A stretch of 63,852 nucleotides of DNA, counting the filler, from Craspedostauros australis (taxonomy: Eukaryota): the NCBI GenBank assembly GCA_030167865.1. It is 22 parts of 22 records of this genome, joined end to end, with 100 filler letters (N's around TTAATTAATTAA, not from the genome) between each part and the next. Parts side by side here need not be neighbours in the genome. Positions count along the whole stretch, not along the records: positions 48,877 to 53,254 come from JALAGF010003269.1; 21 more parts are not named here. One strand, written 5' to 3'. Shown in pieces: positions 11,247-61,817 of this stretch. The stretch's first letter is position 1, and every line of letters starts with the position of its first letter. Under the pieces are notes generated by a model that was not told the DNA's origin, made no database searches, and worked only from the letters and a program-made list of their open reading frames with translations. The position numbers and the translations under genes were made by a program.

Positions 11247-11373
11247 NNNNNNNNNNNNNNNNNNNNNNNNNNNNNNNNNNNNNNNNNNNNTTAATTAATT
11301 AANNNNNNNNNNNNNNNNNNNNNNNNNNNNNNNNNNNNNNNNNNNNATCAACAGTTCACAATTTGTGATGCCC

Positions 11374-14300
11374 TCACCACCCCATGAGCATACGGCGCAG
11401 ATGCTCAAATGCGTCCCGCGCGAGGCCCTTAGTGAAGATGTCGGCAATTTGGTTGGGTGTCGGCACGTGAAGGATCCGAATGAAACCCTCCTTGACCCAG
11501 TGCCAGAAGAAGTGCCACTTGGTTAGGAAATGCTTGGTTCGTGCCGTGACCTTGTGATTCGTTGCCAGTGAGATACACGCCTCGTTNTCCTCAAACACGG
11601 TGCACTGGATGTTGGTTTGCAGCGATTGGTTGAGGTTGGTTGATGCTTTCACTTCGTTGATAAGTTGTTGCATCGGGATGAGAGCGCGCATGGCGAGAGA
11701 GAGAGCGGCGTACTCCGATTCCATTGTGGACAAGGCGATTTCCGTCTGCAGCTTCGATTTCCACACAAGCGGACAGCCACCGAGGATGATGACATACCCT
11801 GTGCGGGAGCGTACTGCGTTTGGGGAGTCGTCGGCCTCGCGCTTGTACAGGCCTGCGAAATCGGCATCAACGTAGCATTCCAGGTTGAGTTGACCCGTCG
11901 GGCGTACGATGGTTCCCATGGTGTTGGTGTGACGAAGGTAGCGCACTATCATTTTGATTGCCTTTGCGTGTGGCTGGCGAGGGTCGTTGCTGAATCGCGC
12001 CACTTGAGAGACGGCGAAAGCCAGGTCGGGGCGTGTATTCGTAGTCAAGTAGAGTAGCATGCCAACGACGGAGCGGTAGTTCCATGCCTCCTTCATCGGA
12101 GGTTGATCAATGGACGCTCCAAGGGCAAGTTGTGTTGTGGGTGTCACGTTGGGTTTGCAGTTCTGCATGCCTGTAGCGTTGATGATCTTGTTGATGAGGC
12201 CGGTTTGTTTGAGGTGGATGGTGTTGTTCTTGGGATCTCTGTGTAGCGATATTCCCAGGAATTCCGTGAAGGTGCCTTCTCGTGTGAGATCAAATCCGCG
12301 CTTACGCATGGACTCAATGAATGCGTCCGCTTCTTCTTCCGTGCGCGAAGCAATGCCAGCGTCGTCCACATAGAGGACGATCATCATCCCATCGCGCATG
12401 AACAGGCACCGTTCTTGATCACACGCATGGAATCCTTCTGCGAGGAGAGCACGTACAAGGTGTTGGTACCATAGCTTGGGAGCTATAGTTAACCCGTAGA
12501 GGCTTTTGATCAGCTTGAGGCATGTATCGGGTCCGTTGGTTGATCGGAATCCGCGTGGAAGGTGTAGGTATACCGGACGATGGATGTCGGCTTGTACGAA
12601 GGCGTTTGAGAAATCAATTGACGTTGTGACCCAGCGAAGCAAAATGGAAAGGATGAGAAAGACGCGAACAGAGGACCAGGCAACGACCGGAGCGTAAGTT
12701 GCTTCTGTTTCAGTCATCATGTCGCCTCTGCAGCACCACCGTCCCTTATACTTCTTTACCGTGCCGTCGGGCATCCGCTTGCGCCGAAACACCCACGTGC
12801 CAGGGAAGATGCGATCAGTAGCGGTGGATTTTGGCACCTCAATCCAAGTCCCCTTTTTGGTAAGGTCGTGAATTTCTTTGTGTGCGGCTGCCATCCATTC
12901 TTGTTTGTTGTCGTCGTTCATCGCTTCGCTGAAGGAGAGGGTGTCGGGATCGGCCTTGGATGCCTTGTAGCTGACGTGTCGATCCGAGATGCTGAGATCG
13001 CCTCCGGTCGTGAAGAAGTTGAGTAAGTCGTACGTGATGAAGGCGCGGTGGTGGTCGGTGTGATCGTCACCATCGTGCTCAAGGGTTGCTGCCATCGCGT
13101 AGTGTTCGTCGGTTTCGTCATTCTCATGTTGTCGTGAAGAATGGGCGTTTGTCGGAGCTGAGGCACGATGTTCGGCCGGTTCAAATTCGCTTGGCGGAGC
13201 CATGATTGTCGGTGGGACCTCCGGCGCGACGCCGAGTTGGATGTGCAGGTGCAGTATGCCGATTTCAAAACGCTCGTCGTGCGTAATGAGGTGCCAAGCG
13301 AAACCCGCTCGTCGCATGAAGTCCTGCACCCGTTCGTCTTCGTCCGGTGGTCGTAGGCCATTTTCCATGGCGGCGATGGCCCGTTCCAAAGTGTATCGCT
13401 GACCTTGTGTTCTTGGTATGAAACCGAAGTATGAGACGGGGAGGTGGTATTCGCCTGTTTCGAGCATTTCTTCGACGGCATCGACGAATCGGCGAATGGC
13501 GTAGTAAACGCACTGGCTCCTTACGGCTTCCGTCGGGAATCGAAATCGCACTACATGGTCAAAGTAATGGCCGATGTGTCGAGTGATGTTGATATGGTGT
13601 GGCCAAAGGTGGCCGATGTCGATGGGGCGCATTGTGGTGCCTGGAAGTGGATCGTCGTCTTCCGAGGACGAGTCGGAGTGATTGCGCATCATGAGGATGT
13701 GGTGCTCGTTGGTTGGTGTTCCTTTGCTGGCTGCCGCCTCTTCTTGTTCCTTGTGCATTCTAGCTCGGATTTCGAGTTGCTGGATGCGAAGCATCCTTTC
13801 CATCTCAAGGTCGCCCTGTGCCCAACGTCGTTCCTCCCAGGTCAATTCGGTGATGTCGATTGTCGCCAGATTTCGGAGCATGGAGTCAGCGTTGCGCACC
13901 AGATCGTGGGCTTTCTGTGTTACTATTTCGTTTGTGTGGGTTGTGTAGCACTGAAGAGTCGCGCGGCAGGTTTGGAGAGCATACTTCATGTCTTCCACGG
14001 CTTGGTCTTTGCTAGGTTCACTTGTCGCGATGGTGGTTACGTTTGCGCTGGCTTCGGATGGTTGTGTGATGTCGTCGGCCCAAGCCACTTTTCCGCCCAA
14101 AGTGTCGTAGGTGAGGCGCTCAACGGTCCGTCGCTCTCGTGGTGTGCGCTTGTTGATGCGTTCAGAGCGGCGTAGTGGAGGCGGTTTTGCCTTTCTAATC
14201 GTTGGTTGTTCTGTTGGTACAGTGATGGATTGGCGCGGCGGTGAAGTTGGAGGAGAGTCGATCGGTGGTTGCACGTCGTCGTCACTGTTGCCGTTAGCAA

Positions 14301-17988: not shown

Positions 17989-19065
17989 ATCAACTGCAAA
18001 GACAGCAATGGTTCCACTCCCCTTCATGACGCATGCCGCACTGGCCAGCTGGAGTGTGTGAAGTACCTCATCAAATCATGCAAGGCTGACATCAACTGCA
18101 AAAACAACGATGGTTCCACTCTCCTTCATCTGGCATGCTTCAATGGCCAGCTGAAGTGTGCGGAGTACCTCATCAAATCATGCAGGGCTGACATCAACTG
18201 CAAAAACAACAATGGCAACACTCCCCTTCATGACGCATGCCGCACTGGCCAGCTGGAGTGTGTGAAGTACCTCATCGAATCATGCAGGGCTGACATCAAC
18301 TGCAAAAACAACTCTGGTTCCACTCCCCTTCATGAGGCACGCTCCAACGGCTACCTGGAGTGTGTGGAGTACGTCGTTGCATCAGCCAATGCCAATAACG
18401 ACATCCAACGCAACAACAACAACATCGACATCCAAAGCAACAACAACACAATCGACATCCAAAGCAACAACAACACAATCGACATCCAAAGTAACAACAA
18501 CAACAACAACAACATCCAAAGCAACAACAACACAACCGACATCCAAAGCAACAACAACGAAATCAACATCCAAAGTAACAACAACAACACCAACCTCCAA
18601 CGCAACAACAACAAAATTGACATCCAAAGCAACAACAACAAAGTCGACATCCAAAGCAACAACAACAAAATCAACATCCAAAGCAACAACAACAACAACA
18701 ACATCCAAAGCAACAACAACAAAATCGACATCCAAAGTAACAAGAACAACACCAAAATCCAAAGCAACAACAACGAAATCAACATCCAAAGCAACAACAA
18801 CAACACCAACCTCCAACGCAACAACAACAAAATTGACATCCAAAGCAACAACAACAAAGTCGACATCCAAAGCAACAACAACAAAATCAACATCCAAAGC
18901 AACAACAACAACAACAACATCCAAAGTAACAACAACAAAGTCGACATCCAAAACAACAACAACAACACCAACATCCAAAGCAACAACAACAACACCAACA
19001 ACATCCAACACAATTGGTTCTGTTGTTGGCGCTGTTGGAAGGCTCCGCGCACAGAGAATCAGTAG
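17989..19065 (+). CDS. Ankyrin-repeat protein, C-terminal half, with Asn-rich repeats and a Cys/Trp tail
   Basis: 34-aa ANK units (GSTPLHDACRTGQLECVKYLIESCRADINCK), then ~200 aa of (I/D)IQSNNNN repeats, then WFCCWRCW. Confidence 0.9.
   Translation: MNCKDSNGSTPLHDACRTGQLECVKYLIKSCKADINCKNNDGSTLLHLACFNGQLKCAEYLIKSCRADINCKNNNGNTPLHDACRTGQLECVKYLIESCRADINCKNNSGSTPLHEARSNGYLECVEYVVASANANNDIQRNNNNIDIQSNNNTIDIQSNNNTIDIQSNNNNNNNIQSNNNTTDIQSNNNEINIQSNNNNTNLQRNNNKIDIQSNNNKVDIQSNNNKINIQSNNNNNNIQSNNNKIDIQSNKNNTKIQSNNNEINIQSNNNNTNLQRNNNKIDIQSNNNKVDIQSNNNKINIQSNNNNNNIQSNNNKVDIQNNNNNTNIQSNNNNTNNIQHNWFCCWRCWKAPRTENQ
18395..19012 (+). repeat. Coding minisatellite, (AAC)n interspersed with GACATCCAAAGC
   Basis: Directly visible; encodes the Asn-rich region. 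Confidence 0.95.
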
Positions 19066-19219
19066 TTGTAACACTCTTTGGCTGTAAGTGTTTCTGTTAC
19101 TTGTTACTGTAGTTGTTACNNNNNNNNNNNNNNNNNNNNNNNNNNNNNNNNNNNNNNNNNNNNTTAATTAATTAANNNNNNNNNNNNNNNNNNNNNNNNN
19201 NNNNNNNNNNNNNNNNNNN

Positions 19220-20241
19220 CAGTTGATGTCAGCCCTGCATGATTCGATGAGGTACTTCACACACTCCAGCTGGCCAGTGCGGCATGCGTCATGAAGGGGA
19301 GTGTTGCCATTGTTGTTTTTGCAGTTGATGTCAGCCCTGCATGATTTGATGAGGTACTCCGCACACTTCAGCTGGCCATTGAAGCATGCCAGATGAAGGA
19401 GAGTGGAACCATCGTTGTTTTTGCAGTTGATGTCAGCCTTGCATGATTTGATGAGGTACTTCACACACTCCAGCTGGCCAGTGCGGCATGCGTCATGAAG
19501 GGGAGTGGAACCATTGCTGTCTTTGCAGTTGATGTCAGCCCTGCATGATTCGATGAGGTACTTCACACACTCCAGCTGGCCGGTGAAGCATGGAGTGGAA
19601 CCAGAGTTGTTTTCGCAGTTGATGTCAGCCCTGCATGATTCAAAGAGATACTTCACACACTCCAGCTCGCTTTTGTGGCATGCCCAATGAAGGGGAGTGG
19701 AACCATTGCTGTCTTTGCAGTTGATGTCAGCCCTGCATGAGTTGATGAGGTACTTCACACACTCCAGCTGGCCGGTAGCGCATGCGTCATGAAGGGGAGT
19801 GGAACCAGAGTTGTTTTTGCAGTTGATGTCAGCCCTGCATGATTCGATGAGGTACTTCACACACTCCAGCTNNNNNNNNNNNNNNNNNNNNNNNNNNNNN
19901 NNNNNNNNNNNNNNNNNTTTGCAGTTGATGTCAGCCCTGCATGATTCGATGAGGTACTTCACACACTCCAGCTGGCCGTTGGAGCATGCGTCATGAAGGG
20001 GAGTGGAACCATTGTCGTCTTTGCAGTTGATGTCAGCCCTGCATGATTCGATGAGGTACTTCACACACTCCAGCTGGCCGGTCAAGCATGCCACATGAAG
20101 GAGAGTGGCACCAAGGATGTATTTGCAGTTGATGTCAACTCCTTCATTCTGCGTCTGGTTCTGCTTCTTCCATTCTTTCAACACCGACAAGTTGCCTATG
20201 AAGGAAGCATCAATGAGTTCATCGATTGTAACATTCGGCAT
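19220..20241 (-). CDS. Ankyrin-repeat protein, N-terminal half of the same gene as 17989-19065
   Basis: ATG at 20241 followed by ~9 near-identical 102-bp ANK repeats. 19220-19533 is the reverse complement of 17989-18302. Confidence 0.9.
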
Positions 20242-48876: not shown

Positions 48877-51800
48877 TGATTAATACGATTAGTAAAGAGG
48901 TAAGAAGTACAGTGAAAGCTGTCACGCCCCTTGATCTTGAGGATGACCTCCGTAGAACAGGGCTGTGACAAAAGTGGTTAGATCTGGCCGTGCCAGTGCC
49001 TTTGTGAGCATATCCGCGAAGTTGAGCTTCGAAGGAATGTATATTGGGACCAATATCCCGGCTCCAACAGACTCGCGCACTCTGTGGAACGATATTGCCA
49101 CATGTTTCTTTTGTAGCAGGCTGTCCGCGATCGTCGTGTTCGAGATCACAGCCTTATTGTCGCAGAATGTGATGGTTGGAGACTTGACATGAACTCCCAG
49201 CGATCGGAGAGCATATCTGAGTGCAATAATCTCCTCAGTCACCGAGCGCAGTGCATTGAATTCCGCGCCATATGTCGATGTGGTGACCGATGTCTGCCGC
49301 TTGCTGGAAAAGTAGACAGGCGTTCTGCCAAGGAAAAGTATGATGCCTGTGTTGGATCGTCGCGTGACCAGATCATGAGCATGGTCCGCGTCCACGAATG
49401 CATACATTGGCAGCTCCGGGTAGATTGCCTCTGGAGCTCCGCTGTCGAGGTCCTCCATAGCTTCTGGGTATTCCTCCTTCATTTGCGCCACCAATTCCGG
49501 ATTGGATGGAGTCGATGGGAAGTTGTCGAATATCATTGGCTTGGAGTCGATCTGTGTGCGGAGGGTGGCCTTGTGCTTGAGGTAGCCCCATATCTTGAGC
49601 GCTCGCACAAGGTGTCCCTTGCGTGGTGATGCAGTGAAACGTGAGAGTGAAGAAGTTGCAAATGCGACGTCGAAACGTCCGAGCTGAACGACCCAGTTCA
49701 GCATGCCGATGAGCTGCTGGAACTGCTGTTGCTCGTCAGGTGTTAGTAGTTCGGTATCGTCCGTCTCTGGATGATCCTTGTTCCGCATAGGAACGTGCTG
49801 GTTGTGTAGCTGCCCGTGTTGGCGCTCGACTTTGTCCAGCGCGTTGGCGATGTACTTGTCACATCCAACGCTCCATTTGCCCTTGGCATTCCTGGAATAG
49901 TCGTTCCCAAGGTAGTACTTGGGAGGTCCGATGTCCTTGATCGTGTAGACCTGCTGGATGGACTTCATATATTTCTGTGGGTCCTTTGCCACGATCTTGA
50001 AGTCATCCACATGGGTGCAGATGTAGTCATATCCGGACTCGTCACGTCGTCTGATCCAGACGTCCTGGTCATGTCGTGATGGCTTGAATCCCATCGAGGA
50101 TAGTGTATTCGCGAAGTGTGTGTGGAATCGTTGTGCACTGGATCTGAGCCCGTACAATGCTTTCTTGAGCACGATTGTCTGGCCTTCCCGGTGGTCGAAT
50201 TCCTTGCCTGCTGTTGCGTATATCTTCTCGTTGGTATATGCGTTGACGAATGCATTGCCGACATCGCCGCAGAGCTGGTCCAGTTTGTTCGCGTCGGCGA
50301 TGACGTCGAGTATTCTCACGCTGGTCGACTTGACTGTCGATGAGTAGACACGGATGTTGTCTGCCAGCTCGATGAGGTGTCCTCCCGCCACGAGTCGTGC
50401 CTTGCGTCGCAGGTCCTGCTTGACTGCAAAGATGAGTCTGAGCTTCGTGCTCTGATATTCGGCTGATGGTCGATGGGTTGACGGATGGAATTCGAAGCAG
50501 TCGAGCTCGATGAGTGCATCGATCTCCTTCTTGGCTGCTGCTTTCCATAAGTCGTTGTTGTTGGCCTGGTCGAGTTGCAAAGCGTGTCTCATATTGCGTG
50601 GAACCTCGACTCCGTATTGAAATACAGTTGCAAAGAAGTCTTTCTTCTGCTTCTTCTTTCCTGGCCGGACCCGTCGTATGATTGTCACGTTGTCGTTGCC
50701 ATCGATTGAGAATTGATGCGTACGCTCGATTCGTTGGATGCGCCGTCTGATCGCTCGTAGTGCATGGGTTGCCCATTTCAATATCGTTTGCGATTGACGA
50801 TTGTGCCGTCCATGTCGAGTAGGCTTGTTCGCGACAATGTAGCGAGCCACGAGCTCCGGATGATCTGCCCGTAGGATGTCATATCGAAACCATTGTGTGT
50901 CATCGCTATCCCACCTTGCGTGAAGGTGTAGATGTCCGTCTCGGAAGCTGTGTCCAATGATGCTGGTGATGTCTTGCTCATTCGGATCGACCTTGTCAAC
51001 CTGATTCTGAAACATTTCATCGTGTTCGCGCTCTGCAAGAGAGCTTTGACGCCCCTGAGTCCGCTGCTCCGGTGGATCCGGCATGGGCTCCGCCGCCGAG
51101 CCGTCGGACTCCACTGAGATGTCATCATCTGGAATGTCGTCGCCGTCGTCGTCATCATCCGATATCATGCCAGCGGCGGTCTGTCCGCGCATGCCATCGT
51201 CGTCAGGCACGATGTTCGGCCGCCCAAACCATTGATCCTCTGATGGAGTAGTATTTGCGTCGACCTCGACGCCCCTGACCCGTTCAGGTCCAGGTTCCGG
51301 AATGCAGGCCGCCGCCCCTGACCGCACAGCAATCGCGTCGATGGCCTCGCGGACCTGTCGAGCGAGCTCAGCTGGCATCGTCTTGGCGCGTGCCCTGTCC
51401 CCCGAAGCGCCCCTGGTCTTGTAGTGTATGAGGTCGAGTCGAGCGATCCGCTGTATTTCCTCGTCAGTGATCCGTGGCACCTCTGCATTCTCCAGAATCC
51501 GTGGTTTCACGATGTTCCGGACGAGCGCCGTGCCTTTCTTGATATCGTCGGCCTTCGGTGACCAGATGTGGTATGTGAATGGATCGCCATGATCCCATGC
51601 GATTCCCAGGAAATATCCTGGCTTGAAGGGATGGGCCGGGAACTTCGTCATCGGTTCGAAGAACCACACCGGCTGGAAGAAAGTGAATCGAAACATAGAG
51701 ATGTCAGGAGTGTTGCCCCGAGCAAGTTCGATCGGCGTCTTCCATTGGATGCTGGCCTTGGCCGTGAAGTTCCAAACGTCGACGGCGTGCTGCACTGCGT

Positions 51801-53254
51801 AGCACCAGAATTCGAGTGGCGCAGATGCCGCCCAAATGAGTTGGTACGCGTGCCGCTTGATGTCGCCGATAGCTCGTTCCGCTCGGTTCTGGTTCTGGTT
51901 CATCGGTGTTGTGAACGAATGCTTGATCATATGCTTGGATGTTACCGCCTTCCATGCCTTGCCCGATTGTACTTGTGAGTTGTCGGAAACGAGTAGGTCC
52001 GGTGCCCCAACGTTGAGGATGAAGTCGGTTAGCGCCCCTGGCGCCATCGCCTCTCGCCGGAGTGGCTTGGTCCAAATCAGCTTTGATTCGCTGTGTATGA
52101 ACAGCTGGAAGCATTTGTAGTGTCGGATCGACTGGATGGTGGAAAAGAATGGATCTGTGTCAACTCTCCCGTGGAGTCTGTGTGGTTGCAGTACCCCTGC
52201 GCGCTGTGTACGGTATTGCCGTGGGATGAGTCGTGACTCGGCCTCGATCGGTTTGTCCGCCAGCTGGGTTGATGCCGCCATGGTCTTCTCAACCACCTGT
52301 TGTGGAAGATGCTTGAACACTTCGCCGAAGTCAACCCGTTGGTTGTTACGTCGAAGTCGTCGGTGTCTGTCGCATATCGTGATATGCTTAGTAGTGTTAT
52401 CGAGCTCGTGAGCCGTCGGTTTTCGTATGGGTATGCGCAGAGTGTTGCCGTCATGATTGGCCAGTGATATACTGATCCCCCCTGACGCGATGCGCTGTTG
52501 CCCTTGGTGTTGAAGTAGGCGATCGTAGACGTTCAGTCCGGACGCGCGCATATGATGAGTATTCATCAATGATTCCGTCTGCCTTGGGTGCTCGTCGAGC
52601 GCCACGTAGTTTGCCTTGATCAGAACCACATCCCCTGTGGGTGATTCATATGCTGCCACCGCGTCGACCATCTGGAAGGTCTCGATTTGCGATTCCATTG
52701 TTGCCCCTCGGGCTTGGAAAGTCTGCTTGTGTTTGCGGGTCACCACCCATCCGGATGCATGTACGATGTCGCCGTCCGCCCCTGAGTCCAAGATGATGTA
52801 GCCCTGGCTACCGTCCATCACTCTTGCCCTGCGAAGACAGTGTTCGACGTGCGGGTGGGTTATGCTCGACGGCGGCACTCGGGGTTCCACAATGCGTGCA
52901 CGCTTGGGCCGTCCCTCTGCAGCTGTACGCGTCTCCCCCCTACAGTCGCGGGGCTTGATACGGATGGCAACCTCAGACTGACGGCGAAGTGTGCCCGCCG
53001 TTGGTTGTCAAGAGCTGTCGCCGTATGATCCGCGTTTCTTGCCGTCGCGAGCCGGGCTCCCGTGGGGCCGGTCGCGCTTGGCTGCTCTGCGTGTGAGCGG
53101 CAGCTGGAGATTCTGTGCGAACTCCGCTGGCTTGAGTTTCTTGAGGGTCTCATCGTCGATGTTCTTCCCGTTCTTGCGGTAGTACCGCGTGGCCTCCACA
53201 AGGAGTGCCTGTTGGCAGGCTGGGAGGCGTCTGAAGACGCTGTCCGACAGCCGA
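48877..53254 (-). mobile_element. Near-complete Ty1/copia element: gag end, in-frame TGA (53008-53010), intact pol (PR-IN-chromo-like-RT-RH, stop 48922), PPT and start of 3' LTR
   Basis: PR ILDSGAD; IN VDTD..SDN..QNRAE; RT RRKARLVAGGH, DVGNAF, KALYGL, HVDD; RH FVDADHA, STYGAEF, CDN, ADMLTK. AAGGGGCG abuts TGACAG at the pol stop. Confidence 0.95.
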
Positions 53255-53354: not shown

Positions 53355-54560
53355 CTGGACGGCGAACTTGCCTTTCACAATCTCCGTCTCGTTGATGGCT
53401 TCCGCCAGGTCATTGTTGTTGGTAGTACTGTGACTACCAAACAACCAACCGGCTGTCACGATGTTGTGTTCTTGAATGTCTGACTTGGAGAACGCAATTG
53501 CGGATGACCGGAGCNTTCCGTCGTCTTCGAANACTTCCGCGTCTGCCTTGTGNGCAACCCAGATCCTCGTGTAGGTATTGAATCCTGTGCGTGCGTACAG
53601 ACTCTCGACGAACTGTTTGATAGTCTCTCGAGAGGTCCACGGTACATCCGATGCAGTCCATGGTTTCATGTCCTTACTTCTTCGCCACGCCACAATCTGG
53701 GCCTTTGAATCAGCCCGGAATATGAATGATCTCACTTCGTTGAGGCTCGCGATCACCTGGTTGATCAGCGGATCGTTGGATTCTCTCGCCATGGGCAGGC
53801 GCACGTCAAAGAAGGTTTTGTTGAAATCGCTCAGAACGTCGTTCACGCTGGGTAGCTCAGCCTGACGAGCTGACTTCCTTGGGAAAGCCACCACCTTGCG
53901 CTTTGGTTTGCGTTGCTTTTTCTTCTTCTTCGGGTTAGGGGACGTAGTGGTCTCCTCTTCGTCTTCAAACTCGATCCCTTTGGACCGCATGAGTACGATT
54001 CGTGCCACTATCCATGCTGAAGTCTCGTGCGTGGCTCTGATCCGCCCTGCATCCCACATGTTGGGGAATATGTCGGGGGTGGCTACCAATCGGATCATGA
54101 GCTCCACCAGGTTGATGTTCTGGTCTGGCTGCAGCTTGTTGTCGTAAGCGTTTTGGAACACTTCCGTCCATTCCTCCAGCGTTTTCCCCACGTCCTCATT
54201 TTCGGAGTTCGCTTTGGTGTGCGCAATGGTCTCATCGAGAGCACCTTCTGCCCCTGTGGCGGTTGTGAAGGGTTCTGCATCCCGTGTCAGCAAATTACGC
54301 TCCCGAAGGATGTCACCCCACGATTTCTCATGGTTGTGACTCCAAATCCAACAGCCGTCATCCGTTGCGGTAATGGTTTTCGCCGCCTTCTTCCGTGCGG
54401 CTTCCCTGGACTGTTTCCGGCCCCCTCCTCCACGCCCTCCGCCGCCGTTACCACCATTGTGTCGCCCTCCTCTTCCTGCTCGTCCCGGTGCCCTTTGCTG
54501 GGTACGGGGTTGCCTTGGGCCGGCTCTGCCGGAGCCGTTTGCTGCGTCTGTGCGCGTCAT
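53355..54560 (-). mobile_element. Probable ORF1 of an Ambal-like non-LTR retrotransposon, 3'-truncated
   Basis: RGG-rich basic N-terminus, Lys-rich NLS-like patch and SDIQEHNIVTAGWLFGSH..DLAEAI, reminiscent of diatom non-LTR ORF1 proteins (recalled, not searched). Confidence 0.45.
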
Positions 54561-55891
54561 TGTCGAAGTTTTTGTTCTGGTAGTGTTTGTACACGTTCTA
54601 CGTAAGTTTTTTAGTACTGGTCCTACATACGTCTTCTCGGTGGAAGGGTCACGCGGACTATGTTCACCACGAATATGAAGTGCAGTACAATAGGACAGTA
54701 GCAGTAAGTCGAGAAGCTTCCGCTTGTGAGTCCGCTGGCCATGTGACAATTGTCTTCTGACAATCGGGAACTTGAAGAAACAGTGCATCGTTGACTGTTG
54801 CAGCTCTGTGCTGACTCAATTGAATATGATGCTGATTAATTCGATTTGAGACAACAGTTTGTCGGGATCTGCTCAGTTGATTAATCAAAGATTGCACGCT
54901 GAAGCTATTGCAGCTAGGATTGATGGGGTCCGATTGCCATTCTGATTCCATCCGACTGATTGAGTATTGCCAGATCTCTCGAGATGAAGCCAGCAGTGCC
55001 AAGGTATGGAATTCTTCAAAATGAAATCATACCCACGTGCAATATGACGCAAGTGGTTGCAAGCTCATTGTGATTTCTTGGCTGAAGCACATGTGGTGAT
55101 CGGGATGCAGCACACAGATACTTCAAGTAGTACTGATCAGACGATCAACGGGAGAATGCTGGAATGATGCGAATTCCTGAGAAGAATGTGCACAAGAGTT
55201 TGTTGTTGACACGATTGGGATACATGTAGTGTGTCCCTCATTGTCTTGTCTGATACTGGATGTCTTCCAGAAAATGGATTCGCTGTTTCAGGTGTTGTCA
55301 GAATTCGTTGTTCACACTTGAAACTCAATGACGTCATCGAATGTGCATTTCGCAGAATCAAGCAGTCGATTGTATCAACTAGTTCGTGTTCTCAACATTG
55401 AGTCCTGTTGGTCACGACTTGTATTACTCGTGTTTCATTGCATTTATCGCATTTGAGAGAAAACGTAGATACTTCCTCGAACCCCTCCTGAAAGCTACCA
55501 CCGTCGTCTTGCTGTCCTCATTACTATGCCACGCTCTGGCCTCTCTCGCTCTGCTATATTCGGTTGACAGAGGTGGCGAAGACAAGGAATCCTTGTCATG
55601 GCGGTTTCATGCCACTCTGTTGTGTACGTAGTCAGTTCAGTTCTTCCACCTGCGATACTATGCAGTTTGGCTTGCCTATCATACCATGCCATGCCATACC
55701 AGACTCGACTCATGTTCAAGGTCACCCAAATACCTCCCAACGGTGCCCTTTCCAGCATGTGAATGATCCATCTATTCAGATTATCCCTCTCTCCTCTCCC
55801 CTCCTCTCCTTTCCTCCAATGCCACCTCTCGCTCCCCGTTGAGACTGTTGAGGCTGTTGAGAAGATTGCGAACAGCCCAGGCGCCACTGCT

Positions 55892-58310: not shown

Positions 58311-59605
58311 AATGAAATAGCAAACAGACGACTATCAACCAACACCATCTTCCACGATCGTAGGTTACCGTGAGCGGAACTTGCCAACAAAGCTAATCCC
58401 AATCCAACTACAGGGAAGAGTATTTCCAGAGCTCTGCGTGAGCTCGCAGACTTCAATGAACGAGGTCGAAAGGAGGAAGGCTATGAGAGCAAGTCATCAT
58501 CCAATGAAGACAGTGATGAACTCAGTGATGAGATAACTGACGAATCCAACAATGAAACTACAGATGACGAAGAAATCATAGACGAAGATGAAGAGATCGA
58601 GATCACTCATCACAGCACAACAGGACTATACGGGATGAACGCAATCATCACCGAAGTACCAGCGATCGACATCGGACTGTCGATGCAAGACGAGAACAAG
58701 GAACCAGAGAAGCACATCGAACCAACGACATTCGATGGAGCCTTCAATCACCCAGATCCCATCCATCGCAAGGGATATCGAGCAGCCATCAAAAAGGAGT
58801 TTGACTCCATGGATACACACAAGGTATACAGCAAGATCAAACGAGACGCCATCCCACGCGGCCGCAGATGCTGCAAATGCAAATGGGTCTTCAAGCTGAA
58901 ACGCGACAGCACACATCGAGCACGGCTCGTTGCATGTGGCTATTCACAAGTCGCAGGAGTAGACTTTCAAGAGCACTACTCACCCGTCATCCATGACGTG
59001 ACCTATCGGGTCATGATGGTGATCATGCTGATCAAGAAGATGGATTGCGCACTCGTCGATGTCGTAACGGCATTCCTACATGGAGACCTTGACAAGGAGA
59101 TCTACATGAACTGTCCCAATGGGATGGATCATCTAGCAGACGAAGCCCTGACCCTACACAAGCCAATCTACAGACTTGTGCAGAGCGCCAGGCAGTGGTT
59201 CAAGATGTTGGTATCGACCCTCAAGAATATCAACTTCGAACAGAGCGCAGCAGACCCGTGCCTGTTCTACAGGAAGACGAATAAAGGAAGCATGATCATG
59301 GCCATCTACGTGGACGATTGCTTCTGTTGCGGAGACCCCAAGGCACTGGAGACATTCCTGAAGGACATCCAAGGCAGCAAATTCAAGGTGACAATCGAGC
59401 GCGGACTCGGAGACTACCTCAGCTGCAACATTGAACTGAACCATGACAAGACTAGAGCGACATTGCGTCAACCACATCTCATCCGACATCTCATCGAAGA
59501 GTTCGGAACCAAGGTTGAAAGGATGCAGCGCTACGGGACACCGGGAACCCCGGGTCAAATCATCGTACGACCATCCGAAGATAACGGACTGCAGAAGGTC
59601 GGACC
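58311..59605 (+). mobile_element. Copia RT fragment, decaying
   Basis: CKWVFKLK..RARLVACGYSQ..GVDF, DVVTAFLHG, DPCLF and IYVDD; in-frame TGA at 58371; YRL instead of the usual YGL. Confidence 0.92.
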
Positions 59606-59705: not shown

Positions 59706-61817
59706 CATCCTGCATCTCAATCTGATCAACTCACAATGCAGACTATTCAAATAACAAATAGCACAACTCAAGATCAGCACTACAACACTAATCTACTTCA
59801 TTGCCACATACTACTAATCTCCAGACGGTCGCCTCACGTTGACTTCATCATCAGATTCCTTGAATCTGGTAGTCAGCTAGGCCATCCCTTCCGGATCGTG
59901 TCACAACAGCACACGAAAATCCAACTGGTAGCTGCGAGTGGTTACACCAACGTTCACCAACTCTTCTGAGCATCTTCCTCTGCCAACCGCTCGCAAGGTC
60001 TCATTGAGACCAAGCCCCAAGGCTACGCTCGCAAACCGAGCAACCTGCAAGGACCCTCAGGTCCAGAGTGGACACCAAGCTCCACAGCTCGCAAACCGAG
60101 CAATACCAAGCGGACCCTCAGGTCCAAGGTGGGCACTAAGATCCACAGCTCGAAAACCGAGCATCTCGAGAGGACTATAAAGTCCAAACTGACGATACCC
60201 GATCATAACATCGGACCGCAGTAGCCTCTGCTCAAGCAAGCTCAACCGCGCCTGCAGACCAGGCACCTGCCTTCTCTAAAGCCAGCATCGTTCTTCAGTG
60301 CACAACTTCAAAACGAAGTGAAGTCGAAGCTAGAGCAGTAGAACGCAGAACAGATCGATCCCTTCGAAGTCAGAGGACCCCTCAAGGACCCGAAACCGCC
60401 CATCATGGCGGAAGAGGACCCCATCCCAACGATGGGAGAGCTGCAAGCACAGCTCGAGACCTTTCGGACTGAAAACCTTCGCCTCCAAGAGGCAACGTTG
60501 ACAGCCGAAGCCAACGCTGAAGCAGCGAACATGGCAGCAGCCGTCTCCCAAGCCGCAGCTGACGCCATCACGGACCCCAAGCCAAAAGGAAGAAAGCGTC
60601 CGGAGGACGACAGCGATGACGACGACGAAGACCTCACCACCAAGCCAATCGTTCCCATCATGGGTGGAATGAACCAGCAAGGCCGCAACTGGGTACCCTG
60701 GACAGCAGGCGAACCAAACGTGGGGTGGACTGGCCTCAAAGAAGGGTCCCAAACTAGATGAACCAACGCCCAGCAGCAGAGAATCCTCCACAACGGAGCC
60801 GACTCTGCGAACCAAGCCAAGCGCGAAACCGGTTTGACCGACAAGTTCAAGAAAGGTGGCAACATCCAGCAATTCATTCGGCTGGTACACAACCACATGA
60901 GCAAGACGGGACTCTTAACCATGGCATACATTGTCGATGACGCTGCAACCCCAACAATGACATGTGTCCTCGACTCACCTGCCTCCTTCACCCTTGAAGA
61001 CTCAACGAGGCATTTCGAAGCGTACCACAAGAAGTGGGACAACTACGACGTCCAAAACAACTGGGCAGCCGCCGCGTTCTTCCGCGACAGCCTTGACCCA
61101 GTTCTCGAAGATCAGCTCATGAACCGAATCGAAAGAAAGTATCACAACCACTTCCTAACCCTCTTCATCGAATTCATGAATAGCATCACCGCCAACTCGT
61201 TGGACGAGCAAGACAAGATTGCCAAGGACATCCGTCAAGTCGACTGCTCTCAGTTCGCTGGTGAGAACGTCGGTGAAATGGCTGTTAAGCTTCGCGCCCT
61301 CTGCAAGAGCCTCGATGACGCTGGTCGCTTCGACCTCCATCTGCTCCGCAACATCCTTGATGCCTTCCTTCAGGCAGGCGGCAAGTTCCTCTCCGGTGAA
61401 CAATACCGACGTCCCCTTTATGTGATGAAGGATGATCTTGAGACAATCCTCAAGCGTCTCCCCATATTCACGTACCAAGAAGCTCTTCCAAAGCTCGCAG
61501 CCAATGACCTCACCTGGATGGCAATCTGCAACAAAGCGCAGGCTTCGTACGACAACGAAGTACGTGGAGATCGTTGGCACGCCATTAGACGCGTCAAGGA
61601 CCGCAACATCCCCAGGCAATCGTACTTCAACAACGTAGCCAAGCATCCAAAGGCAAACATCCTTGAGCAACACAAGGGTTTCGGAAGGAACAACGCGAAG
61701 AAGAAGAATCAACCAAGGAAGCCCAACAACAAAAACGGCAATCGAAAACCGAACCAAGGTTGGGCATCCACGCCACCCAAAGCGGGTGAACCACAGCGCA
61801 AGCTTGTCTACGACAAG
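59706..61817 (+). mobile_element. 5' part of an LTR retrotransposon (probably copia): LTR end, PBS, structured leader and gag (60405 onward, one in-frame TGA at 60759)
   Basis: ...TCCA-AC-TGGTAGCTGCG junction; gag-like ORF with coiled coil, WVPWTAGEP..W, helical core (FAGENV) and basic C-end WASTPPKAGEP. Confidence 0.7.
59926..59943 (+). promoter_or_regulatory. Primer-binding site, probably for initiator tRNA-Met
   Basis: TGGTAGCTGCGAGTGGTT is the reverse complement of AACCACTCGCAGCTACCA, a tRNA 3' end with CCA, A73 and U72 as in eukaryotic initiator tRNAs. It lies 2 nt after a CA. Confidence 0.7.

Follow-up and report, generated by a model that had tools for sequence, protein, structure and literature searches.

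We wondered whether an in-frame UGA that separates gag from pol in a diatom copia retrotransposon marks a copy broken by mutation or a stop codon that the element uses in making its proteins. The usual account of copia elements is a single open frame combined with splicing or degradation, and Tca2 is the lone case with an in-frame stop. The question is raised by a 63,852-nt stretch of DNA (the window) from Craspedostauros australis (GCA_030167865.1), composed of contigs chained by N spacers, in which the element occupies one 4378-base contig (G000:C3269, record JALAGF010003269.1; window 48877-53254).

A UGA codon separates gag and pol in one frame

The junction reads TCT-TGA-CAA-CCA on the minus strand, with the TGA at 53010-53008, gag upstream and pol downstream in the same frame, as a sequence-only reading of the locus had described. 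Past the TGA the frame is free of stops for 1361 codons, to 48922, where that reading had claimed more than 1300. It had also stated that no ATG precedes the immediate vicinity of the protease motif: the first ATG is indeed codon 64 (52818), and the D-S-G of the protease starts at codon 74 (52788). The features of the element are as follows.

53011-53253, minus: C-terminal part of gag, 81 codons, cut by the contig edge (frame reading)
53008-53010, minus: UGA in frame between gag and pol (sequence; family tally 38 TGA and 1 TAA of 39)
53002-53007, minus: CAA-CCA, a CAR-YYA readthrough context (sequence; family 10 CAACCA and 29 CAATCA)
52981-53001, minus: 8-bp hairpin of the sequence-only reading, in full register only in the window copy and its closest sisters (folds, alignment)
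52980-52999, minus: 5-bp hairpin common to subfamilies A, C and D, +9 to +13 with +24 to +28, 10-nt loop (alignment fold of 7 copies)
52869-52878, minus: alternative distant arm, its position not kept across subfamilies (folds, subfamily comparison)
52789-53007, minus: open spacer, 73 codons from the stop to the protease Asp, its sole Met (52818) not conserved (purifying selection)
52780-52788, minus: D-S-G codons, which we take from general knowledge of aspartic proteases to be the protease active site (motif recognition)
51898-52077, minus: integrase core (Pfam rve, E 0.089, under cut-off; profile A1 against solved integrase cores, E 1.2e-4)
49825-50439, minus: copia-type reverse transcriptase (RVT_2 over cut-off; pol residues 857-1061)
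48922-53007, minus: pol frame, 1361 codons, order PR-IN-RT-(RH), ending in TGA (frame and domain matches)
48877-48938, minus: purine-rich tract and beginning of the 3′ LTR, which the contig end truncates (on the model of the complete copy L039)

Judged by its sequence, the element is a Ty1/copia LTR retrotransposon. The copia-type reverse transcriptase match is strong (RVT_2, E 2.3e-18, 67 bits, cut-off 31.6), and the integrase matches, of which the Pfam one is below cut-off, lie upstream of it at pol residues of about 310-370. The window copy is truncated by contig ends on both sides; a full gag is present in the sister copy L031, which is 97% identical to it and encodes 458 aa from the Met, matching Retrotran_gag_2 (E 4.5e-7, 29.9 bits, cut-off 27), while the gag of L037 returned no Pfam match. 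The family copy L039 is complete: it measures 5.9 kb, has a 5-bp target duplication and is flanked by 170-bp LTRs, TG..CA at their ends, with a single difference in 171 bases. By analogy with L039, the first bases of the 3′ LTR in the window copy are the stop codon of pol. This stop (window 48924-48916, minus) reads TGA-CAG-CTT, one base off CAR-YYA, which is probably a by-product of the LTR end.

The silicon transporter family is matched 92 times in the genome (best E 2.6e-247), and the host is therefore a diatom. These matches are spread over many contigs, a dozen of them near full length. Their number is above that known to us for model diatoms, an excess which may come from alleles or from a fragmented assembly.

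The stop codon and its context are conserved in the family

Family copies, collected by DNA and protein searches of the element's own genome that both give lower bounds, form four subfamilies. The junction was found on 37 of 38 contigs examined, twice on two of them, giving 39 junctions. The codon at the junction is TGA in 38 and TAA in one, the sole TAA copy having a broken gag, and a sense codon in none. The sequence-only reading had named CGA or TGG in sister copies as the mark of a private nonsense mutation, and neither occurs among the 39. Single-ORF relatives do adjoin the window's family in our tree, as would be expected had a chance nonsense mutation struck a single-ORF element; with the stop carried by every junction, including those of young copies with 99% identical LTRs, such an origin is next to impossible.

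The six bases after the stop are CAA-YCA in all 39 junctions, in a tally anchored on the CA after the stop and accompanied by a separate family alignment made without such an anchor. The CAR-YYA context proposed for the window copy is therefore kept throughout the family. In terms of the readthrough motif types, the family has the CAR-YYA of Type I (UAG-CAR-YYA) after a stop other than UAG (38 UGA, 1 UAA), and CAA in place of the CUA or CGG that follows the UGA in Type II. CAR-YYA at the stops of SIRE1 and a few other retroelements is said to have been noted by the Voytas group. Because the genome is TGA-rich (0.72-0.93 of off-frame stops), stop counts within it say little on a preference for UGA. 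The gag-UGA-CAA-CCA-pol layout is real and conserved, and is most likely functional.

Many copies of subfamily B (L008-L016, L033-L036) share a gag stop 26 codons before the junction and a loss of two bases before the protease Asp, which suggests a defective lineage spread in trans. As the copies share these defects, subfamily B was not counted in the analysis of selection.

The spacer between stop and protease is under selection as protein

Across subfamilies A, C and D the spacer is 55-74% identical, and its 73 codons are kept without a stop or indel. None of the four copies tested has an in-frame stop in the spacer, while the other frames have 1-4 each, and dN/dS over codons 1-63 is 0.45-0.62. 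Being open, free of indels and constrained at this level, the spacer is taken to be translated as protein. In this family, then, selection acts on the frames to either side of one conserved in-frame stop. These observations bear on a small intron that removes the stop from part of the transcripts, so that splicing sets the ratio. Splicing governs Gag:Pol in Arabidopsis, barley and Drosophila copia, but yields the Gag-only RNA there (PMC5580714; here and below, cited papers are drawn on in excerpt). An intron would not keep the frame, stay stop-free and show dN/dS below 1 directly after the stop, nor would it favour UGA and a leaky context, and we consider it quite unlikely.

Production of Pol independently of Gag, through an internal promoter, reinitiation beyond the gag stop or a non-AUG start in the spacer, has some points in its favour: the Tca2 junction holds a minor promoter (PMC2194720), a related clade with 106-676 non-coding bases between the genes and mixed stops indicates that separate pol expression exists among these elements, and in the window copy a Met lies 10 codons ahead of the protease Asp. 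That Met, codon 64, is Thr in subfamilies C and D, and L037 and L060, from two subfamilies, have no Met before the catalytic Asp at all, so an AUG restart cannot yield the whole protease in these copies. Met is also absent before the Asp in L079, L085, L087, L104 and the own-genome families E2-E4; it is present in several relatives, which counts against readthrough. Independent expression, moreover, needs no shared frame, no single stop, no UGA and no selection on codons 1-63, and is in our view unlikely.

Between subfamilies A and C, synonymous divergence is 0.36 in the spacer, below the 0.51-0.60 of the flanking gag and protease; this pattern, absent against D, is a hint of possible constraint on the RNA. 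In the spacers of most elements an Arg-Arg motif, which might signal cleavage, lies 5-15 codons past the UGA and recurs ahead of the protease.

The window's family has at most a small hairpin after the stop

The hairpin ACGGCGGG/TTCGCCGT (53001-52981) has a fold of -11.4 kcal/mol over 36 nt (z -2.15; 7 of 200 shuffles as good), and the 156-nt region spanning it and the distant arm is not unusually stable (z -1.20, 28/200 shuffles). The 8-bp hairpin of the sequence-only reading thus forms in the window copy, but its register is broken in sisters, by an A at +10 in L031 and by an A at both +8 and +10 in subfamily C. Its alternative arm at 52878-52869 likewise exists, beginning 130 nt after the stop and about 110 nt after the 5′ arm, but at a place that the family does not conserve. 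Neither the 8-bp register nor the +130 arm was therefore accepted as a feature of the family. In subfamilies A, C and D the +7 arm finds its best partner at different places, and single-copy folds disagree between subfamilies.

An alignment fold of seven copies yields the 5-bp hairpin between +9..+13 and +24..+28, with pair probabilities of 0.83-0.87 and 34 of 35 cells paired. Its changes are one-sided only (A-U to G-U). The proposed check, covariation of the stem among family copies, turned up no structure that is strong or covaries. In the window's family the +7 arm was also rejected as a partner of the protease codons, since at -3 to -8 kcal/mol the pairing does not surpass that with non-cognate partners; this pairing likewise does not hold in L074, L080 and L082. 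A pseudoknot from the hairpin loop, inspected by eye, found no support in subfamily D.

In-frame junctions of related elements use UGA

A single scan of metagenomes gave 69 loci at 26-67% identity. By our reading, nineteen of them (18 distinct, L113 repeating L112) have gag, stop and pol in one frame, and the protease Asp follows the stop at a distance of 23-43 codons. Of the 18, five have an upstream frame truncated by a contig edge (66-200 codons), and in L110 it is broken after 40. Ten loci (6 distinct) have 106-676 non-coding bases between gag and pol, three are single frames of 1868-1918 codons, and two more are probably so but broken. L086, with a TAA 73 codons upstream and no gag, and L108 were ambiguous and left out, and 33 of the 69 loci show no junction. 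The spacer-type clade (L115, L116, L119, L124, L128, L130) represents a third way of expressing pol. L111-L113 are three near-identical elements in tandem, at a spacing of ~7.0 kb, on one 18.2-kb metagenome contig.

All 18 distinct in-frame metagenome junctions have UGA, whereas TGA makes up only 0.40-0.81 of off-frame stops in the 17 measured. The gag stop of the spacer-type elements is TGA in one of six (Fisher p 1.4e-4 against 18/18, with rows that are not independent). CAR-YYA follows the stop in none of the 18, so the context proposed in the sequence-only reading is special to the window's family and is no general signal. At these outside junctions the sixth base after the stop is A in 12 of 18, and the first is C in eight and A in eight.

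The same gag-UGA-pol layout occurs in four more copia families of the C. australis genome, E, F, G and I, while others are single frames; family E has many copies and a pol of 1300 codons. On a quick tree of 49 protease-integrase rows, from which the order of UGA gains and losses is not derivable, elements with a UGA junction are spread over five groups, interspersed with groups of the single-frame and spacer types; L073 and P0003, the closest relatives of the window's family whose junction is visible, are single frames. A search of viral contigs found no relative among 124 candidate stretches. In families I (L142, L143, L144, L161) and G (L240, L244), the 60-100 codons directly past the UGA open with a long hydrophobic stretch of membrane-like appearance; the next 150 codons of family I yielded no protease motif.

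Strict use of UGA in the in-frame class could also reflect decoding by tRNA-Sec, which would make Pol output depend on selenium. The host has a tRNA-Sec with anticodon UCA, and at some Sec codons, too, stems lie 6 nt after the UGA (PMC3159437). A SECIS was found neither by Rfam in seven elements, with models not checked on diatom SECIS, nor by a pattern of our own in seven 3′ regions, a pattern without a positive control. As pol extends to the LTR edge, the 3′ UTR is very short, and pol has UGA as its own stop; UGA is, besides, simply the leakiest stop (10.1101/2022.12.06.519325). We regard tRNA-Sec decoding as very unlikely. We also rejected a host-wide reassignment of UGA, since there is one junction UGA per element and TGA terminates pol in the window copy and in L093.

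A related clade has a predicted stem between junction and protease codons

The stem clade consists of 11 metagenome elements (SH-aLRT 99, quick tree) and L104, which was added once the stem of the clade had been spotted, and which fits it. In this predicted stem the 5′ arm begins 6-8 nt past the UGA, and its partner, 70-110 nt downstream, consists of the codons that surround the protease Asp. Pairing is -18 to -24 kcal/mol, over 11-15 bp, in nine of the 12 members and weak (-6 to -12 kcal/mol) in L091, L094 and L097. The 5′ arm tracks its partner: where the protease motif is D-T-A, D-T-G or D-S-G, the arm shows the matching change. Cognate arm pairs sum to -220 kcal/mol, compared with -133 ± 14 for permuted partners (reached in 0 of 20,000 permutations), and control arms before the stop or in the loop give -1 to -10 kcal/mol. 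Fold z-scores are -3.64 for L104, -8.1 for L098, -3.9 for L084 and -5.5 for L096.

In a MAFFT alignment of the clade, in which three arms are misplaced, 73% of cells pair, and two-sided changes occur in 11 cells. Covariation exceeds all 500 shuffles and all six slid controls, while the number of stem pairs with two-sided changes is not exceptional, being reached by 84 of 500 shuffles. A conserved, covarying stem like that placed 8-9 nt after the stop in the Type II motif is seen in this clade, and the window's family has its 5-bp hairpin without two-sided change.

Over 21 junctions, mean pairing is -18.6 kcal/mol at +7 and -10.8 to -14.7 at nine other offsets. Together with the individual folds, this suggests that stems begin 6-10 nt past the stop. 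An unrelated hairpin sits at +7 in family I, whose four copies show two-sided changes in it, and folds from +6 to +10 also occur in E2, E4 and G; E1, E3 and F have no comparable fold after the UGA.

The placement of the stems bears on RNA editing of the stop, from UGA to a UGG-like codon, with the 3′ stem as substrate. A-to-I editing of stop codons occurs in some fungi. To our knowledge no such editing has been described in diatoms, and the stems start after the stop and exclude it, which makes editing highly improbable.

Programmed readthrough as the likely mechanism

The comparative evidence makes it likely that programmed readthrough of the UGA sets the Gag:Pol ratio. The element would make one LTR-driven RNA, on which most ribosomes would halt at the UGA and release a Gag of ~460 aa. 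A minority would decode the UGA through a near-cognate tRNA and continue through PR-IN-RT-RH, giving Gag-Pol in the low ratio needed for particle assembly. We infer the readthrough itself, its rate and the residue inserted. Readthrough explains the same frame, the single stop, the choice of the leakiest stop, the leaky context, the position of the stems and the missing Met. Counting against it are the failure in yeast of the junction of Tca2, the one copia case put to the test, the lack of strong structure in the window's family, the weak pairing of three stem-clade members and the single frames of L073 and P0003. The readthrough proposed in the sequence-only reading is well supported by comparison, but its two structures are not family features and its CAR-YYA is not general.

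In the window's family, stimulation probably comes mainly from the optimal CAA-YCA context, helped at most by a small hairpin at +9. In related families a weaker context would go with a strong stem beginning 6-10 nt past the UGA. This points to a trade-off, in which the window's family relies on context and others on structure.

A more speculative extension, which we consider unlikely, is that a regulated decoder specific for UGA, either tRNA-Sec or a nutrient-sensitive near-cognate tRNA, lies behind the strict UGA use of many diatom copia lineages. Gag:Pol, and transposition along with it, would then be tuned at the level of translation by selenium or nutrient stress, and the protease active-site codons of one clade would double as a stimulating RNA arm.

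Comparison with known readthrough systems

In-frame stops between gag and pol have been described in MuLV, Tca2, the fission-yeast elements Tj1, Tosmo and Tcry, and rice RIRE2 (PMC2194720, PMC5580714, 10.1101/2022.12.06.519325, PMC2754532). Tca2 (pCal) of Candida albicans resembles the window's family in being a copia element whose gag and pol share one frame split by UGA, with a predicted structure a few bases downstream. It differs in its 8-nt purine-rich spacer and predicted pseudoknot, where the window's family has CAA-YCA and a weak hairpin, and in belonging to another host kingdom, the layout here being found in many more lineages. The Tca2 junction alone gave no readthrough in S. cerevisiae and has a minor promoter inside (PMC2194720). 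Tj1, Tcry1 and Tosmo1-3 likewise have a conserved in-frame TGA, read as programmed readthrough, and single-ORF relatives nearby; unlike the window's family they are Ty3/gypsy elements with the context GAA-TGA-CT, and the excerpt mentions no 3′ structure (10.1101/2022.12.06.519325).

Moloney murine leukaemia virus also has one stop between gag and protease that sets Gag:Gag-Pol, and a stimulator overlapping protease codons, but it is a retrovirus with UAG and a compact pseudoknot over the protease N-terminus (PMC2194720, PMC13517186). The published motifs UAG-CAR-YYA (TMV) and UAG-CAR-NBA (yeast) (PMC3159437) have UAG where the elements studied here have UGA. The TMV Type I motif is matched by CAR-YYA after the stop in 39/39 junctions of the window's family, but is absent from 18/18 outside junctions (PMC3159437, PMC2194720).

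The alphavirus readthrough stem has a spacer of 8-9 nt, 10-12 bp with a bulge and a loop of ~100 nt, and stimulates up to 10-fold. Like VEEV and SINV, the 12-member clade combines UGA with an extended 3′ stem (spacer 6-8 nt; 11-15 bp in the nine strong cases). This alphavirus-like stem is that of the related clade and not of the window's family, and its predicted 3′ arm consists of protease active-site codons (PMC3159437).

The window element shares a diatom host with the CoDi (copia of diatoms) elements (PMC2806351), and the excerpted main text of that paper contains neither "readthrough" nor "read-through" and names no stop codon, context or structure. A search of full-text literature, with subscription journals mostly outside its scope, found nothing on readthrough in diatom or stramenopile retrotransposons, and the excerpts of PMC13578239 and PMC13517186 do not cover it. 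The strategy is already known; what seems new is its use by elements of a further, large group of hosts, together with an unusual structural variant in a related clade.

One diatom genome thus has the layout in at least five families, and 18 metagenome elements share it; the signals that can be identified are a TMV-like context in the window's family and covarying stems in others. These provide testable cassettes for how copia elements pass a stop, and a first handle on the rules of readthrough in diatoms. In the stem whose 3′ arm is the catalytic motif of the protease, one sequence would be constrained both as protein and as RNA. For annotation, such elements should count as intact rather than as broken by nonsense mutation.

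Other features of the window

A frame of 487 codons at 53355-54815 (minus; 502 codons when taken from 53307) is not the gag of this element: it lies on the neighbouring contig and has no gag match, and no Pfam match over cut-off was found for it. Parts of two other copia elements lie on the plus strand, at 58374-59603 and 60342-61817. One is a reverse transcriptase with an RVT_2 match, and the other has a gag-like frame resembling the single-frame family J of the same genome, in which two in-frame segments, of 139 and 352 codons, flank a TAG at 60759-60761. The window also contains tandem repeat arrays of ~102, 27 and 32 bases (17989-20147 and 24763-25186) and a 1.7-kb duplication, 87% identical, between 179-1872 and 11347-13040.
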